Made by a program: the position numbers and the translations under genes. DNA of 40,417 bases, from the NCBI GenBank assembly GCA_964493115.1, contig CAZBNF010000003.1:1-40417 (forward strand), read 5' to 3'. Shown in pieces: positions 227 through 5,442 of the stretch. Each line of letters begins with the position of its first letter. Positions within the stretch are counted from its first letter, which is position 1. This stretch comes from an uncultured Planctomycetia bacterium. GTDB taxonomy: Bacteria > Omnitrophota > Gorgyraeia > JABMRG01. The notes beneath the pieces are model-generated. The model did no database searches, was not told the origin of the DNA, and saw nothing but the letters and a program-made list of their open reading frames with translations.

Positions 227-259
227 CTGCTTACGAGTCAGTATGCTTTCTTTTTATAA

Positions 260-289
260 TTGACACTATATATAACTTTATGTTAGTAT
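260..289 (+). promoter_or_regulatory. Candidate sigma70-type promoter for the tRNA operon
   Basis: TTGACA at 260-265 is followed by an 18-nt spacer and TAGTAT at 284-289, with a TG dinucleotide one base upstream (extended -10 like). It lies 50 nt upstream of the first tRNA-like sequence. Identified by pattern match only. Confidence 0.3.
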
Positions 290-338
290 AGAGACCATTT
301 TGGCGAAAAATACCTGTAAAAAGGTTTACAATTTTTAT

Positions 339-361
339 GCCCGCATAGCTCAGTTGATAGA
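339..361 (+). pseudogene. Truncated tRNA 5' fragment (acceptor 5' strand + D-arm)
   Basis: GCCCGCA TA GCTC AGTTGATAGA matches the first 23 nt of the intact tRNA-Lys at 1078 (GCCCCTA TA GCTC AGCTGGTAGA) at 19/23 positions, then diverges. No anticodon arm, T-arm or 3' acceptor strand follows. Confidence 0.55.
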
Positions 362-387
362 ATAATGGTAAAAAATATTATATATCG

Positions 388-1173
388 ATGAAAAAACAAT
401 GGGAAACCAAAGAAGAGGTAAGGAGTTTAAGGAAGCAAGGCTTAAGTTATAAGGAAATAAGGGTCAAGATCCCTATAGCAAAGAGCACTGCAAGTGACTG
501 GTGCAAGGATATTCAGTTAACTGAAGAACAAATTACAAGGCTCCAACAGTTGAAAAAGACGGGCAGCTATCGCGCAGGCCTTATAGGTTCAAAGGTTAAT
601 CAGGAAAAAAGGGCTAAAGAGATACGCCTGATTAAGCAAATTGCAAAATCTCAAGTGCCATTGTTGATAAATGAAAAATTATGGCTTGCCGGACTAATGC
701 TTTATTGGGCTGAGGGACATAAGTCAGGAAAAGTCGGTATTTCCAATTCCGATCCAGATATTATTGGGTTTTTATTGAAATGGCTTAGGGTATATTGCAA
801 AGCAGCTGACGAAAAAATGAAGCCCTATTTAAATTTGCATTCAGGGCAAAATGAGGATAAGGTTAAAGAATATTGGTCTAGGATTATAAAACTACCCAAA
901 AAACAATTTGGGAAAAGTTATATAAAGAAAGAAGGGACAGGGCATAGAAAAAATATTTTATACAATGGAACGCTGCGCGTAGATATATGCAACTTAAATC
1001 TTTTGTATACTATATTAGGTTGGATAGAGGGTGTAACAGACCTTTTTTATAGTAATGAGTTGTTATTATCAGATAGTGCCCCTATAGCTCAGCTGGTAGA
1101 GCACCTGCCTCTTAAGCAGGTTGTCCCAGGTTCGAGCCCTGGTGGGGGTACCAAGGTTTATTCGTTCTTTTAG
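388..1173 (+). CDS. HTH + LAGLIDADG-type homing endonuclease-like protein; 3' end of the ORF reads through tRNA-Lys
   Basis: The N-terminus resembles a resolvase-type HTH (LRKQGLSYKEIRVKIPIAKSTASDWCKDI). A single LAGLIDADG-like motif, LWLAGLMLYWAEGHKSGK, is followed by about 115 aa, typical of one endonuclease domain. There is no in-frame stop until TAG at 1171-1173, so the last ~31 codons are encoded by the tRNA gene. No obvious SD precedes the ATG. Confidence 0.6.
   Translation: MKKQWETKEEVRSLRKQGLSYKEIRVKIPIAKSTASDWCKDIQLTEEQITRLQQLKKTGSYRAGLIGSKVNQEKRAKEIRLIKQIAKSQVPLLINEKLWLAGLMLYWAEGHKSGKVGISNSDPDIIGFLLKWLRVYCKAADEKMKPYLNLHSGQNEDKVKEYWSRIIKLPKKQFGKSYIKKEGTGHRKNILYNGTLRVDICNLNLLYTILGWIEGVTDLFYSNELLLSDSAPIAQLVEHLPLKQVVPGSSPGGGTKVYSFF
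1078..1153 (+). tRNA. tRNA-Lys (anticodon CTT), CCA encoded
   Basis: Manual cloverleaf: GCCCCTA TA GCTC AGCTGGTA GAGC A CCTGC CTCTTAA GCAGG TTGTC CCAGG TTCGAGC CCTGG TGGGGGT A CCA. The acceptor stem has G1-U72 and U6-G67 wobble pairs. Confidence 0.88.
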
Positions 1174-1178
1174 AATAA

Positions 1179-1189
1179 GCGGATGTGGC
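1179..1189 (+). pseudogene. Short tRNA-Leu-like 5' remnant (acceptor strand only)
   Basis: GCGGATGTGGC is identical to the start of the longer remnant at 1257 and close to the intact tRNA-Leu (GCGGATGGTGG). It is followed by unrelated sequence containing an 8-bp stem, CCAAATTT...AAATTTGG. Confidence 0.3.
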
Positions 1190-1256
1190 ACCCGAACCAA
1201 ATTTATAGGCAGGTCTTGTGTAAGCAAAATTTGGTACGGGGCTGTTAGTAGTTTAT

Positions 1257-1348: not shown

Positions 1349-1433
1349 GGGCGGATGGTGGAACTGGCAGACACGTTAGCCTTAGGAGCTAATGGAGAAA
1401 TCCGTGGAGGTTCAAGTCCTCTTCCGCCCACCA
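1349..1433 (+). tRNA. tRNA-Leu (anticodon TAG), long variable arm, CCA encoded
   Basis: Manual fold: GGGCGGA TG GTG GAACTGGCAGA CAC G TTAGC CTTAGGA GCTAA TGGAGAAATCCGT GGAGG TTCAAGT CCTCT TCCGCCC A CCA. Confidence 0.88.
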
Positions 1434-1451: not shown

Positions 1452-1527
<76 letters not shown>

Positions 1528-2052: not shown

Positions 2053-3356
2053 TAGTGGGCAAAAAAACGAAATTCAAAAAGAAATTATTCCAGTTCTTAA
2101 AACCCTTTAAGTGGTTTTATCCCGGCATGGGGGTAAAACGCTGGCTGTTCCTTTCATTTATAGGAGTTATTTTTATAGTAGCGGGCGGGCAGTTTCTTTC
2201 GGGCCCAACAGCCCTTTTTAGAGTAGTTGGTATCGCATATATGTTCATTGGTATAGTCGTTATAGCTCTTGGGATAAAACGGGTTATGTTTACCTTTCTG
2301 GGAGTTATATTACCTGATAGGCAGGAAGAGCTTGTAGATCTTTTGTATCAGAAAAAACATCTTGAGCGAGGGCTGAAGATAGTTGCAATAGGGGGAGGCA
2401 CAGGATTGTCCGCACTCCTACAGGGTTTAAAACAGTATTCAAGCAACCTTACGGCTATTGTTACTGTGGCTGATGATGGAGGATCATCAGGCAAACTTAG
2501 AGAAGATTTTAATATTCTGCCGCCAGGCGATATTAGAAACTGTCTTGTAGCCCTTGCCGATACCAGCCCATTAATGGAGGAACTTTTTCAGTATCGGTTT
2601 GAGGGTGAATCAACATTAGGGGGCCATAGTTTTGGCAATATATTTATATTGGCTCTTTCAAGGGTAACAAAAGGTTTCGAAGAAGCGGTCCAGGCAGCAA
2701 GCAAGATACTCGCGATAAGGGGGTGTGTTCTTCCTTCTACTTTAACCAAGGTAAGATTAGTGGCTGATTTAGAAGATGGTTCTACGACATCAGGCGAATC
2801 AAATATAACAAAAAGAAAAAATAAGAGCCCAATTAAAAGGCTATATCTTGAGCCCGCAGATTGCCAGCCTACAACAAGCGCAGTGGCGGCAATAGCTAAT
2901 GCCGATGCTATTGTATTAGGCCCAGGAAGTCTCTATACCAGCATAATGCCCAATCTTTTGATAGATTCTATAGCAGAAGCGATAAACAGCTCGCCTGCTA
3001 TCAAGCTGTATGTGTGTAATGTTATGACTCAGCCAGGAGAGACAAACGGTTATAAATCAAGTGATCATATAAAGGTTTTATACGCCAATACAAAATTAAA
3101 ACGCATAGATTATGCGGTTATAAATAATTCCAATATACCAAAGCCTCTTGAACAACGGTACATGTCAGAAAGCGCGTATCAGGTAGAAGCTGATTTAGAC
3201 CAGATCAAGAAAATAGGCGTAATTCCTATAGAAGGTAGTTTTATAACTGTAAATGAGATAGAAAATAAAGAATATTTAAGGCATAATCCCAGAAGGCTCG
3301 CGAAGTCAATTATAGATATTATATCTATAGCAAAATCAGAAGCAGCGCATCGATAG
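2049..3356 (+). CDS. yvcK: YvcK/CofD-family gluconeogenesis-factor-like protein with an N-terminal membrane anchor
   Basis: IVAIGGGTGLSALLQGLKQYSSNLTAIVTVADDGGSSGKLREDFNILPPGDIRNCLVALAD is the UPF0052/YvcK core. The first ~100 aa contain two hydrophobic helices. The TTG start overlaps the ptsN stop, so the exact start is uncertain. Confidence 0.8.
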   Translation: MIVGKKTKFKKKLFQFLKPFKWFYPGMGVKRWLFLSFIGVIFIVAGGQFLSGPTALFRVVGIAYMFIGIVVIALGIKRVMFTFLGVILPDRQEELVDLLYQKKHLERGLKIVAIGGGTGLSALLQGLKQYSSNLTAIVTVADDGGSSGKLREDFNILPPGDIRNCLVALADTSPLMEELFQYRFEGESTLGGHSFGNIFILALSRVTKGFEEAVQAASKILAIRGCVLPSTLTKVRLVADLEDGSTTSGESNITKRKNKSPIKRLYLEPADCQPTTSAVAAIANADAIVLGPGSLYTSIMPNLLIDSIAEAINSSPAIKLYVCNVMTQPGETNGYKSSDHIKVLYANTKLKRIDYAVINNSNIPKPLEQRYMSESAYQVEADLDQIKKIGVIPIEGSFITVNEIENKEYLRHNPRRLAKSIIDIISIAKSEAAHR

Positions 3357-3385: not shown

Positions 3386-3676
3386 ATGACACACAAGACG
3401 ATAAAAAAAGATGTAGTAATAAGAAGTAGGCAGGGTTTGCACGCCAGGCCCGCCGCGCTTTTTGTGCAGATTGCCAATAAGTTTGACAGTGATATATCCA
3501 TCATAAAAGATGGTGAAGAGGTGAATGGCAAGTCTATAATGGGCATACTTATGCTGGCGGCTGAACAAGGTACTAAAATATGTTTAAAGGCAACAGGGTC
3601 AGATGCTGAAGATGCTATCGCCCAACTCGAAAAGATATTAATCGAAGATAGGGATGATTTATCTAATTTGAAATAA
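3386..3676 (+). CDS. ptsH: Phosphocarrier protein HPr/NPr
   Basis: [11 protein letters not shown] contains the active-site His, [13 protein letters not shown] matches the Ser46-region motif, and the length is 96 aa. Confidence 0.9.
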
Positions 3677-3705
3677 GCTTGAGGCGCAAAAGAAAGGCAT
3701 GTAAG

Positions 3706-5442
3706 ATGTTTAAGGGAATTTCCGCATCACCGGGTGTAGCTATAGGTAAAGCGTTTCTTTATAATAGTGAAGATATCAGGGTCCCAAAGATAAAACTTAA
3801 GCTTTCCGAAATACCCCATGAGATAGCCCGTTTTGAAGAGGCACTTATAAAAACTCGTTCTGAGCTTATAACCATACGTAACAATATTTCCTCAGAGATG
3901 GGCACAAAGCACGGGGAGATATTCAATGCCCATCTTCTTGTGCTTGAAGACAGTATGATAATAGATGAGGTGGTTAGCCGCCTGAGAAAGCAGAAATATA
4001 ATGTTGAATATGTGTTTGAGGATGTTCTAAAAAAATATGTAACAGCATTCCAAAAGATGGATGATGAATATTTAAGAGAACGTATAACCGACATAGAAGA
4101 TGTCGGAAAAAGGCTCTTAAGAAATCTTCTTGGAAAGAAAAAGCAAACACTGCTCGATATACCGCCTGAGTCCATAGTAGTTGCTTATGACCTAGCTCCA
4201 AGTGATACAGCCACAATGCACAGAAAGCACATACTAGGGTTTGTAACAGACATAGGGGGTAAGACATCCCACACTGTTATTATGGCTAAATCGCTTGAGA
4301 TCCCTGCTGTTGTAGGCCTTGAAAACATCACAGCAAATGTCAAGAGCGGCGATATCCTTATTATAGACGGTACAACAGGCAATGTTTATTTAAATCCAGA
4401 CAGAGCCACTATAGCCCAATATTTAAAGGAACAGAAAAAACTTTTAAAATTTGATAAAGACCTGCAGGAGATCAAATTTTTACCTGCCGAGACAAAAGAT
4501 GGCCACAGGGTTGAGCTGGGCGCTAATATAGAACTTCCGGATGAAATACCCGGTGTCCTTTCGCATGGTGCTGAAGGCATAGGTCTTTATAGGACAGAAT
4601 ATTTTTATATGAATCGTGTGGGCCTGCCAACAGAGGAAGAGCATTACCAGGCTTATAAGTCTGTGGTTGAGAATATAAAACCCAATGCGTTGACAATCAG
4701 AAGCCTTGATTTAGGCGGGGATAAGTTTCTTTCGCAGCTTGATGTACCAAAGGAGATGAACCCTTTCCTGGGCTGGCGCGCTATACGCTTAAGCCTTGCA
4801 AACCCTGAAATTTTTAAGACACAGCTTAGAGCTATATTGCGTGCGTCCGCGCATGGTAAGGTAAGGTTGATGTATCCTATGATATCAGGCGTAGAAGAAC
4901 TTGAAGCGGCTAATAAATGCTTGGAAGAAGCCAGGCAGGAGCTGAAGGCAAGAAAGATTCCTTTTGGCCGAAATATGGAAGTAGGCGTAATGATAGAGGT
5001 GCCGTCAGCGGCCCTTATTGCTGATATACTTGCAAGCAGAGTGGATTTTTTCAGCATAGGGACAAATGACCTTATACAATATGCTCTGGCAGTAGACAGG
5101 GTAAATGAAAAGATCGCTTATCTTTATGAACCCGCGCACCCTGCGGTGCTGCGTCTTTTAAAGAACGTAATAGATGCCGGGCACGCTAAGGGCATTTGGG
5201 TTGGAATGTGCGGTGAAATGGCTGGCGAACCAAAGTTTGCACCATTATTATTAGGCTTAGGTCTGGACGAATTCAGTGTTCCTGCCCCTTATCTTTTAAG
5301 AATAAAAAAAATCATACGTTCCGTAAGCTATGAAGATGCCAAAGACATGGTTCAACAGGCGCTTGGGCTTGCAACAGGCAAGGAAGTAGAAGCGCTGGTA
5401 TCAAAACGATTTAAAGATATAGTCTATGAGGTTATTGAGTGA
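3706..5442 (+). CDS. ptsI: Phosphoenolpyruvate-protein phosphotransferase (PTS Enzyme I)
   Basis: The N-terminus is [37 protein letters not shown] carries the catalytic His, and the C-terminal PEP-utilising TIM-barrel motifs [11 protein letters not shown] and [12 protein letters not shown] are present. The start is trimmed from 3679 to ATG 3706. Confidence 0.92.

Follow-up and report, generated by a model that had tools for sequence, protein, structure and literature searches.

How does a protein-coding gene come to lie in a tRNA operon without a stop codon of its own ahead of the next tRNA gene? This question is raised by an open reading frame (ORF) in an Omnitrophota contig of 40,417 nucleotides (the window, by which we mean this stretch of DNA at its full length). 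The original prediction, made from the letters of the window, described the ORF as a LAGLIDADG-type endonuclease gene that had inserted itself into the operon.

The tRNA operon and the ORF within it

The locus contains the following features.

260–289, plus strand: σ70-type promoter of the resident tRNA-Lys operon (TTGACA-18-TAGTAT with an extended TG, 10 of 12 matches)
339–361, plus strand: 5′ stump (nucleotides 1–23) of the resident native-type tRNA-Lys(CUU), recognised by homology with alleles that lack the ORF
362–387, plus strand: AT-rich leader from the stump to the start codon, its last ~15 nucleotides homologous with the leader of locus L087
388–1173, plus strand: ORF of 261 amino acids (reading frame, homologues and dN/dS)
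676–726, plus strand: family signature, a helix and a turn, KLWLAGLMLYWAEGHKS (homologue alignment)
1078–1153, plus strand: working tRNA-Lys(CUU/CTT) of a foreign sequence type (ARAGORN and Rfam, 67.9 bits)
1171–1173, plus strand: TAG, the first in-frame stop, 18–20 nucleotides past the tRNA-Lys 3′ end
1179–1190, plus strand: first short stump, of a native-type tRNA-Leu (gcggatgtggca; sequence reading), kept in L087
1257–1280, plus strand: second stump, nucleotides 1–24 of the native tRNA-Leu(UAG), 24/24 identical to the tRNA-Leu of L081, L083 and L084
1281–1318, no strand assigned: two copies of the palindrome CTGCCTGCCGGCAGGCAG inside the tRNA-Leu stump (sequence reading)
1349–1433, plus strand: working tRNA-Leu(UAG) of a foreign type (ARAGORN and Rfam; identity comparison)
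1452–1527, plus strand: tRNA-Gly(GCC) of a non-native type (ARAGORN and Rfam; identity comparison)

The promoter lies where it had been predicted, and the block TTTATAATTGACAC...TTTATG.TA.TATA does not vary among three alleles without the ORF and two with it. This putative promoter is now the one from which the stump, the ORF and the tRNAs are transcribed. Since every promoter-like site on this strand lies upstream of the ORF, the tRNA must be transcribed through the ORF, in agreement with the co-transcription proposed originally, and the host would therefore be unable to silence the ORF without losing the tRNA.

The ORF starts with ATG at position 388, 26 nucleotides past the tRNA fragment. 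Both its reading frame and its N-terminal helix-turn-helix (HTH), a three-helix unit in the predicted structure, bear out the first description. The HTH occupies residues 1–58 and is followed by a long helix (68–93), a conserved C-terminal domain (95–222) and a linker (223–230), while residues 231–261 are encoded by the tRNA-Lys gene and 17 nucleotides past its end. The ORF is under strong purifying selection, with a dN/dS of 0.08–0.13 against three orthologues. No second copy was found within the window. The G+C content of the ORF (36%, against 41% for the window) was dropped as evidence because the difference is too small.

As had been noted, no stop precedes tRNA-Lys: the gene is contained wholly in the reading frame, which stays open across all of its 76 nucleotides and closes at the TAG at 1171–1173. 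A sequencing or assembly error might account for a lacking stop codon, but nothing except the oddity of the arrangement speaks in its favour. Of the 120 closest relatives (independent protein clusters), at least 96 have tails encoded by a tRNA, in all three frames, and no member of the Omnitrophota clade L001–L019 has a stop of its own upstream of the tRNA. Since the relatives also enter the tRNA, the missing stop is not an assembly artefact, and we give an error of this kind practically no credence; orthologues that stop before the tRNA, named at the outset as the finding that would point to such an error, are not what most of the closest relatives present.

The ORF lacks its own stop because its end is so close to nucleotide 1 of the tRNA. 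RNase P cleaves at the 5′ end of tRNAs, and a cut there would leave an mRNA without a stop codon; since no in-frame stop occurs from 388 to past the tRNA 5′ end at 1078, it follows logically that a processed transcript would have none. The 261-amino-acid product would then be obtainable from unprocessed precursors only, and ribosome rescue on the stop-less mRNA, by tmRNA tagging as proposed originally, could plausibly cap the level of the protein.

Empty and filled alleles of the same operon

The fragment at 339–361 (GCCCGCATAGCTCAGTTGATAGA) had been proposed as a tRNA 5′ remnant with 19 of 23 positions identical to tRNA-Lys at 1078–1100. The count is confirmed, and the local alignment of the two pieces (score 15, z = 8.5) was equalled by none of 200 shuffles. 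The match to the native tRNA-Lys of an ORF-free relative is higher (22 of 23), and the acceptor strand of the fragment, GCCCGCA, is of the type found in all six empty alleles. Homology is moreover continuous with the upstream DNA: window positions 253–361 align with the promoter, leader and tRNA-Lys nucleotides 1–23 of the ORF-free locus L081 at 82.6% identity over 109 nucleotides (E = 6e-28), and with L084 and L083 likewise. The tRNA model of Rfam did not report 339–361 in positions 1–2000 even at E ≤ 10, because the piece is too short; the check by covariance model suggested originally thus gave no support, and tRNA identity was obtained from synteny with the ORF-free relative. By this synteny, 339–361 is what remains of the resident tRNA-Lys, with the promoter and leader of that gene still in front of it. 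We also considered a remnant of tRNA-Arg(TCG), a gene present upstream of the ORF homologue in many loci, and rejected it, since the empty alleles show the fragment to be the continuation of the native tRNA-Lys promoter and leader. The leader between stump and start codon is homologous with that of L087 over its last ~15 nucleotides and is therefore part of the incoming segment; in L087, the stump has been lost by a 41-nucleotide deletion and the leader retained.

The syntenic locus has the gene order AdoMet_dc, DUF3047, tRNA operon, ptsN, cofD, HPr and ptsI. An endonuclease-free allele of the tRNA cluster, the existence of which was put forward for checking, was found in five ORF-free lineages with common flanking genes (L081, L083, L084–86, L101/102 and L105/106), and filled alleles occupy the same locus in three ORF-bearing lineages (the window, L087 and L090). 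This is the presence/absence pattern of free-standing homing endonuclease genes.

Three tRNA genes were placed by ARAGORN and Rfam at 1078–1153, 1349–1433 and 1452–1527, and all three differ from their native counterparts. One type of tRNA-Lys is common to the six empty alleles and another to the window, L087 and L089. The working tRNA-Lys of the window is only ~76% identical to the native one, with differences in both halves, and in both halves its type is that of the ORF-adjacent tRNA in L087 and L089. Each of the three filled syntenic alleles has a foreign tRNA-Leu; that of the window is 80% identical to the native type, which is identical across four empty alleles, and 92–96% identical to that of ORF-bearing L087 and L090. 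The native tRNA-Gly type is 97–100% conserved among the empty alleles and kept in L087; tRNA-Gly is foreign in the other two filled alleles, the window (83% identical to the native type) and L090. A foreign tRNA-Lys and tRNA-Leu thus accompany the ORF, joined by tRNA-Gly in two of three cases, so the replaced tract varies in length, as in co-conversion.

Judged from these alleles, resident genes were replaced by a segment carrying the ORF, a foreign tRNA-Lys(CUU), a foreign tRNA-Leu and, here, a tRNA-Gly, while by the same comparison the resident promoter, the leader and the first 23 nucleotides of the old tRNA-Lys remained upstream as a stump. The original prediction held that the ORF had duplicated or displaced the 5′ part of a tRNA gene. 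Displacement agrees with the alleles and duplication does not: the resident gene lost its entire 3′ part, and the tRNA-Lys that came in with the ORF is complete and of another sequence type. The more general view, in which the ORF is mobile, looks selfish and has inserted itself in a tRNA operon, also agrees with the empty and filled alleles.

A point against simple replacement is that the replaced tract contains tRNA-Leu stumps of native type, which require one or more extra events. The second of them probably resumes at ~1319–1331, beyond the palindromic insert; in L087, the palindrome termini flank a longer insert, and L001 has one copy. No near-identical filled/empty pair was found among the alleles compared, so there is no case for recent mobility. 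The insertion in this clade is old: dS has reached saturation, and relatives have either a decayed stump or, after deletion, none.

A large family tied to single tRNAs

The ORF belongs to a family with 666 homologues at 90% clustering and 3,881 clusters (~3,900) at 50%, distributed among Omnitrophota, Patescibacteria and the tRNA arrays of jumbo phages. No description of the family was found in the literature on the motif LYWAEG or on homing endonucleases, the candidate phyla radiation and tRNA. At 80 species-level loci, the ORF lies almost always 0–80 nucleotides upstream of a co-oriented tRNA. A tblastn search of the INPHARED phages gave no match, and the matches in IMG/VR were distant homologues only; all ten of these have tRNA genes within a few hundred nucleotides on the viral contigs, and most sit inside tRNA arrays. 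Clades of the protein tree correspond to the isoacceptors Lys-CUU, Arg-UCU and Arg-CCU, whose anticodon loops are one-nucleotide neighbours. The Arg-CCU clade is exceptional in that the ORF is located downstream of the tRNA, with no tRNA after it. Across these loci, the ORF is evidently a traveller tightly linked to a copy of the same tRNA.

Such constancy could also be expected of a domesticated DNA-binding factor that serves the host in transcription or maturation of the tRNA operon and is inherited vertically, the tRNA differences being ordinary operon turnover. Three observations would suit a factor of this kind: the ORF has persisted for long under strong purifying selection, its place and orientation in tRNA operons are conserved, and no catalytic domain is detectable. 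They have to be set against the patchy presence of the ORF among close relatives with otherwise identical tRNA genes, the truncation of resident tRNA genes, the foreign origin of the linked tRNAs, the homologues in phage tRNA arrays, the association with a group I intron (see below) and the targeting of different tRNAs in different clades. We consider a host-serving role improbable.

Stumps upstream of ORF homologues were recognised at 12 or more loci. They end at tRNA nucleotides 23–39, none beyond nucleotide 39, and the best-preserved ones end at nucleotides 34–39, that is, in the anticodon loop; at several Lys-clade loci, the ATG follows 0–6 nucleotides later. Many loci have no stump, which counts against a homing-like reading. 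At L022, L025 and L032, the ORF-adjacent tRNA-Lys is split between nucleotides 33 and 34 by a group I intron (RF00028, 62–99 bits). No mention of a group I intron in tRNA-Lys(CUU) was found in the literature searched, and positions 1–2000 of the window gave no match to Intron_gpI or to any other intron or ribozyme (Rfam, E ≤ 10). An ORF-containing intron in a split tRNA was considered and rejected, since nothing is missing from the downstream tRNA and the stumps extend 2–5 nucleotides beyond the intron insertion site. The native tRNA-Lys genes have hypervariable, compensated anticodon stems.

Stump ends in the anticodon loop with the ORF start directly after them might be produced by a small site-specific recombinase or transposase, whose circular ORF-carrying element would enter the loop and bring the tRNA 5′ half needed to rebuild the gene, as tRNA-targeting integrases do. 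The HTH at the N terminus belongs to the resolvase/transposase type, with HTH_23 and HTH_7 passing the Pfam thresholds in phage homologues, and small inserts with tRNA-end repeats at their borders are common in these operons. However, a crossover in the anticodon loop should yield a hybrid tRNA whose 3′ half is native, and the working tRNA-Lys is foreign in both halves, for which reason we rejected an integrase-like crossover at this position. Furthermore, the downstream tRNAs have been replaced as well, the displaced native 3′ half of tRNA-Lys was searched for and not found, and no Phage_integrase, Resolvase, DDE or transposase profile matched in the members searched. Elements with tyrosine integrases do resemble this one in using a tRNA gene for entry and in being flanked by a partial tRNA copy on one side and a functional tRNA on the other; they differ in that they duplicate the 3′ part by a crossover within the gene, which gives a hybrid tRNA, whereas here the 5′ part was left and the working tRNA is foreign throughout; the unit also lacks an integrase domain and measures only ~0.8 kb. 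A recombinase is thus an unlikely agent.

Lys and Arg tRNAs are classic substrates of anticodon nucleases, so the protein might instead act on RNA, cutting or binding the anticodon loop and forming an addiction or anti-defence module together with a resistant tRNA variant. Its constant tie to a variant copy of one isoacceptor would be consistent with this, and phage tRNA arrays are known counter-defence loci (PMC13096335). The scars, however, are in DNA: genes reduced to stumps, tracts that have been replaced, and an intron at the very same DNA site. The HTH, too, hints at a protein that binds duplex DNA, and neither known anticodon nucleases nor PADLOC models show any likeness to the protein. 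We therefore see little chance for a module of this kind.

The protein and its proposed mode of action

The string LWLAGLMLYWAEG at residues 98–110, on which the LAGLIDADG assignment had been based, is indeed present. It forms part of a signature whose residues G102, M104, L105, Y106, E109, G110 and K112 are invariant, and which is kept as AGCMLYWAEGSK in phage homologues. As in LAGLIDADG enzymes, LAGLMLYWAEG occupies a helix (97–109) with the invariant pair E109-G110 at its end, followed by a β hairpin, and the family contains single-domain proteins, tandem genes and head-to-tail fused doubles. The motif is two residues longer than the LAGLIDADG consensus, and the likeness is without statistical support.

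Profile searches covered the window protein, 26 bacterial and 8 phage homologues (35 members) at thresholds from E ≤ 0.1 to 10. No match to LAGLIDADG_1, _2, _3 or any other nuclease profile of Pfam was obtained in any of the 35; Pfam, NCBIfam, PHROGs, PADLOC and PDB (phmmer and hmmsearch) returned nothing beyond weak N-terminal HTH matches, the PDB profile search by hmmsearch being empty. None of the nuclease domains GIY-YIG, HNH, LAGLIDADG, His-Cys box, PD-(D/E)XK and EDxHD was recognised. Alignment of the domain profile with I-CreI, the sequence of which was checked against PDB, gave a probability of 0.2% in hhalign. Two AlphaFold models, one of the full-length protein (pLDDT 85) and one of the domain, were used in three Foldseek searches, two against PDB and one against BFVD. 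Neither model had a significant PDB match (E ≥ 2e-3, TM ≤ 0.42), the best being OmpA-like and IspF folds, and no LAGLIDADG chain appeared among the 50 listed matches of either PDB search, though the library holds many. The BFVD search gave no significant match. LAGLIDADG enzymes have an αββαββα fold; the predicted order of strands and helices here has an extra helix and strand between β3 and β4. As modelled, the C-terminal domain fits no known fold.

The profile check proposed originally therefore recovered the HTH and not LAGLIDADG, and the label "LAGLIDADG-type" is not supported; a homodimer of the I-CreI kind, with one motif per chain and an HTH in addition, now seems very improbable to us.

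We conclude that the ORF probably belongs to a large family, not described so far, of selfish genes that are free-standing, specific for tRNA genes and similar in behaviour to homing endonuclease genes. The protein, consisting of an HTH and a C-terminal domain, would recognise and cut the DNA of one tRNA gene, probably as a dimer; a dimeric unit is suggested by the tandem ORFs and fused double proteins. The cut would fall in or beside the region coding for the anticodon loop, and the stump ends in that loop and the group I intron there fit a putative homing-endonuclease-like gene aimed at the anticodon region. The linked tRNA copy would be immune, either by its differing sequence or, in some genomes, by a group I intron splitting the site. 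Two points count against this scheme: no nuclease, recombinase or transposase domain was recognised in the protein, and the linked and native tRNAs agree in their anticodon loops.

Several known systems resemble the arrangement in part. Mobile endonuclease ORFs of mitochondria, such as that at atp6 of Allomyces, bring a replacement for the gene part that they displace, and the original part stays behind as a pseudogene remnant. The ORF described here is likewise a mobile one with a substitute and leaves a remnant of the original; in Allomyces the 3′ end of an organelle protein-coding gene is concerned, and here a whole tRNA in bacteria. I-Ssp6803I, a PD-(D/E)XK enzyme, also has the anticodon region of a tRNA gene as its homing target, but it is encoded within the intron, whereas our ORF lies outside the tRNA and matched no such profile.

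The analogy drawn at the outset was with segB of phage T4, and it is a fair one. SegB, a free-standing GIY-YIG homing endonuclease in a tRNA gene cluster (PMC2330249, PMC13096335), recognises a tRNA-gene motif and spreads itself along with neighbouring tRNA genes (PMC2330249). The two have in common a free-standing selfish gene between tRNA genes with a recognition site within a tRNA gene, the erasure of the recipient's tRNA markers and associated duplications of tRNA segments. In contrast to SegB with its GIY-YIG domain and T-psi-C region, the ORF family has no known nuclease domain and its scars are at the anticodon loop; it occurs in chromosomes of Omnitrophota and Patescibacteria and also in phages, keeps to one isoacceptor per clade and adjoins the tRNA so tightly that the stop codon is missing. 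Collaborative homing, exemplified by F-CphI with the psbA intron and mobE with the nrdB intron (PMC3984707, PMC2790892), has the same geometry (PMC3984707), given that the intron at nucleotides 33/34 in L022, L025 and L032 is a few nucleotides from the stump ends elsewhere. It differs in that the window has no intron and the variant tRNA linked to most members of the family is uninterrupted.

More tentatively, and with less than even confidence, the family may constitute a new structural class of homing endonucleases that target the anticodon-loop DNA of single isoacceptors, are protected by a variant or intron-split tRNA, force their own transcription by separating an essential tRNA from its sole promoter and have tRNA 5′ processing in place of a stop codon, whereby each processed message would become a non-stop mRNA. 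In that case, an arms race with the nuclease would have left its mark in the compensated, hypervariable anticodon stems of native tRNA-Lys. Should the protein prove to be a nuclease, its fold would be a new one among endonucleases, its natural targets would be long and specific for tRNA genes, and nature would supply thousands of variants for study. The obligate read-through, for its part, is a natural test case in which RNase P processing, translation and ribosome rescue meet on one RNA.

The locus would illustrate a route to a selfish gene that is hard to remove, in which the gene's own copy replaces an essential tRNA and the gene sits inside the transcript of that tRNA. It would link chromosomal tRNA operons to jumbo-phage tRNA arrays and to a group I intron in tRNA-Lys(CUU), and would account for the tRNA gene stumps and the mosaic make-up of tRNA operons in Omnitrophota and Patescibacteria, perhaps also for the rapid change of their anticodon stems.

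An ORF that runs into the neighbouring tRNA gene

Everything that the original prediction read from the sequence (an ORF, a tRNA fragment in front of it, read-through of tRNA-Lys and a promoter) is present in the window, in the following arrangement.

Features of the operon
260-289, plus strand: promoter-like site TTGACA-18-TAGTAT (sequence match)
388-1173, plus strand: ORF, ATG start, 261 aa
1078-1153, co-oriented with the ORF: tRNA-Lys(CTT) (ARAGORN and Rfam, 67.9 bits)
1349-1433, co-oriented with the ORF: tRNA-Leu(TAG) (ARAGORN and Rfam agree)
1452-1527, co-oriented with the ORF: tRNA-Gly(GCC) (ARAGORN and Rfam agree)

The ORF has no stop ahead of the tRNA: its frame is open through the entire tRNA-Lys gene, and the first stop is the TAG at 1171-1173. 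The fragment at 339-361 is identical to the first 23 nt of tRNA-Lys at 19 of 23 positions, a score never reached when the upstream region was shuffled 200 times. No plus-strand promoter-like site was found inside the ORF, which sits between the tRNA and the sole upstream promoter-like sites on its strand. A second such site, TTGATA-16-TATTAT at 354-381, overlaps the end of the tRNA fragment just 5′ of the ORF start and could be an ORF-proximal promoter born from decay of that fragment.

A one-genome-per-species scan retrieved at least 561 loci with homologues, of which 80, mainly from Omnitrophota and Patescibacteria, were kept for analysis. In nearly all of them the ORF is placed 0-80 nt upstream of a co-oriented tRNA.

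First in-frame stop of the ORF in the 80-locus set
0-18 nt before the tRNA: 29 loci
On U8-A9-G10 of the tRNA (TAG), nt 10-11: 18 loci
On U36-A37-A38 of the Lys anticodon loop (TAA): 7 loci
Elsewhere inside the tRNA: 7 loci
Beyond the tRNA: 8 loci and the window

Throughout the Omnitrophota clade (L001-L019) the ORF lacks a stop of its own before the tRNA, and tRNA-encoded peptide tails, in all three frames, are found in at least 96 of the 120 closest protein clusters. This recurrence excludes assembly error as the cause; the missing stop is a trait of the family.

Empty and filled alleles of the operon

Relatives of the operon were located via the downstream ptsN gene. The shared neighbourhood (AdoMet_dc, DUF3047, tRNA-Arg, tRNA-Lys, tRNA-Leu, tRNA-Gly, ptsN, cofD, HPr and ptsI) is found without the ORF in five lineages (L081, L083, L084-86, L101/102 and L105/106; empty alleles) and with it, besides the window, in L087 and L090. 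Positions 253-361 of the window match empty allele L081 at 82.6% over 109 nt, a stretch that includes promoter and leader and runs into an intact tRNA-Lys, where the homology ends exactly after nt 23. This homology identifies 339-361 as a stump (a leftover 5′ piece) of the resident tRNA-Lys that has stayed in its original setting.

Six empty alleles have one common, native tRNA-Lys type, GCCCGCA...TGCGGGTACCA. The native tRNA-Lys(CUU) genes of ORF-free loci L081, L083, L084, L101, L103 and L105 are near-invariant outside the anticodon stem, in which positions 28-31 and 39-42 show compensated changes between lineages. In the window, L087 and L089, the tRNA-Lys linked to the ORF belongs to a different, foreign type across both halves, GCCCC[T/C]A...TGGGGGTACCA, from which it follows that the working tRNA-Lys arrived with the ORF. 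The same property bears on recombinase-like integration, to which we assign a low probability: an integrase-style crossover inside the tRNA gene is excluded by a tRNA-Lys that is foreign in both halves. Four empty alleles have identical tRNA-Leu genes, but a foreign type is common to all three ORF-bearing operons (the window, L087 and L090); of these, L087 alone keeps the native tRNA-Gly, that of the other two being foreign. Comparison of the alleles shows that resident tRNA genes were replaced by a segment comprising the ORF and tRNA, and the right-hand end of the replaced tract is variable, as co-conversion predicts.

In the window, the interval from the foreign tRNA-Lys to the foreign tRNA-Leu contains a native-type tRNA-Leu stump (1257-1280, 24 of 24 nt identical to native), interrupted by a palindromic insert at 1281-1318; a shorter tRNA-Leu stump occupies 1179-1190. 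The window operon has, on this evidence, been struck more than once.

These operons also contain small inserts. The palindrome at 1281-1318 consists of two tandem copies of CTGCCTGCCGGCAGGCAG, whose termini also flank an insert of ~60 nt in L087 (~3855-3930), and L001 has a single copy 5′ of its ORF (~240-262); the palindrome resembles a small element of the REP or MITE kind, common to Omnitrophota genomes. A segment of ~60 nt between the two tRNA-Leu stumps (window 1191-1240, L087 ~3768-3825) carries a 9-bp inverted repeat, ACCAAATTT...AAATTTGGT, and the block around it can be aligned between these two loci at ~77%. The window, a complete contig, begins within the diverged 3′ end of a tRNA-Arg(TCG) (1-54), and a segment of ~50 nt from this region is found in L083 on both sides (875-1045 and 3210-3323) of a 2.3-kb island encoding an Xre-type HTH protein together with a RES-domain protein, which resemble a toxin-antitoxin pair. 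Inserts of ~180-200 nt flanked by exact tRNA 3′-end repeats of ~21 nt occur in L084 (3487-3850, three repeat copies, at tRNA-Leu), L090 (2635-2875) and L014 (2149-2871; both at tRNA-Arg); such miniature integrated elements are present in ORF-free alleles as well.

The family and its probable anticodon-loop site

Homologues form 666 clusters at 90% identity, and a domain profile retrieved 3,881 clusters (50% identity) at E ≤ 1e-3 and 1,910 at E ≤ 1e-10. A neighbour-joining tree contains four clades (Lys-CUU, Arg-UCU, Arg-CCU and phage) that track the linked isoacceptor; the geometry of the Arg-CCU clade differs, with the ORF just downstream of the tRNA. The anticodon loops concerned, CTCTTAA, CTTCTAA and CTCCTAA, show single-nucleotide differences. 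In L021 the ORF lies between near-identical tRNA-Lys genes (2859-2931 and 3670-3743, 69 of 71 nt), the upstream one with anticodon CTT and the downstream one with TTT; the anticodon seems to have switched once the gene had been duplicated. Large viral contigs in IMG/VR carry ten distant homologues (26-31% identity) with the same AGCMLYWAEGSK motif and an N-terminus exceeding the Pfam HTH_23 threshold; each of the ten is within a few hundred nt of tRNA genes, and the majority lie inside tRNA arrays.

Stumps 5′ of the ORF were found in at least 12 loci, in the Lys and Arg-UCU clades alike, and their acceptor type is often unlike that of the working tRNA. None reaches past tRNA nt 39, and the best preserved stop in the anticodon loop: at nt 39 in L056, at nt 38 in L006 and at ~nt 35 in L003 and L090. 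Those of L004 and L010 are apparently the same as that of L006, with “...TTAA” followed three nt later by the ATG. A distance of 0-6 nt separates the stump from the ATG in several Lys-clade loci. In L022, L025 and L032, the tRNA-Lys(CUU) directly after the ORF is split at nt 33/34 by a group I intron (Rfam RF00028, 62-99 bits; ~3660-3990, ~3648-3960 and ~3628-3950, respectively). Together, the stump ends, the close ATG and the intron position point to anticodon-loop DNA as the site of action. The three intron-bearing loci come from groundwater MAGs; no tRNA-Lys(CUU) intron was found in the literature searched, the search not being directed specifically at one. Their arrangement resembles “collaborative homing”, in which a free-standing endonuclease gene adjoins an ORF-less intron in its target site (PMC3984707).

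The ORF protein and the proposed mechanism

Searches of Pfam, NCBIfam, PHROG, PADLOC and PDB sequences gave only weak N-terminal HTH matches. An AlphaFold model (27 homologues as input, mean pLDDT 85) is composed as follows.

Predicted structure of the ORF protein
Residues 4-39, extending to 58: three-helix HTH
Residues 68-93: long helix
Residues 95-222: compact alpha/beta domain

The string LAGLMLYWAEG is strongly conserved (invariant G102, M104, L105, Y106, E109, G110 and K112), and the original prediction took the ORF for a LAGLIDADG-type endonuclease. All tests of this assignment, profile searches included, were negative. Neither the full model nor the domain alone had a significant Foldseek match in PDB or BFVD; the best PDB matches were OmpA-like and IspF folds (E ≥ 2e-3, TM ≤ 0.42), and no LAGLIDADG structure was among the 50 matches listed. 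Alignment of the domain profile with I-CreI (hhalign; I-CreI sequence checked against PDB) gave a probability of 0.2%. The protein is not a LAGLIDADG enzyme and matches no assigned fold, and no catalytic domain was recognised in it by profile and structure searches.

In some family members (P0277, P0306, P0331 and P0349), a single polypeptide contains two complete HTH-plus-domain units, head-to-tail, and in three Patescibacteria loci (L027, L029 and L030) a tandem pair of ORFs precedes one tRNA-Lys, which suggests a dimeric working unit. A dN/dS of 0.08-0.13 for the window and three orthologues shows that the gene is functional, and since dS is saturated, the insertion in the window's clade is old. 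That the gene is a domesticated operon factor, or encodes an RNA-level toxin accompanied by a resistant tRNA, we hold to be improbable in either case.

We propose instead that the ORF protein would itself make the break. The closest precedent is T4 SegB (PMC2330249): this free-standing endonuclease recognises a motif in a tRNA gene, and the tRNA genes next to it spread along with it. If the ORF protein acts in this way, escape from the nuclease might account for the variability of native tRNA-Lys anticodon stems. Cleavage by RNase P is needed to make a tRNA. A cut at nt 1077/1078 would leave an ORF message without a stop codon, the 261-aa product would be possible only from unprocessed precursors, and ribosome rescue might keep the amount of protein low. 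In lifestyle, the element is best described as a variant of a free-standing homing endonuclease, with a fold that has no known match, and the finding is more general than could be seen in the original prediction.
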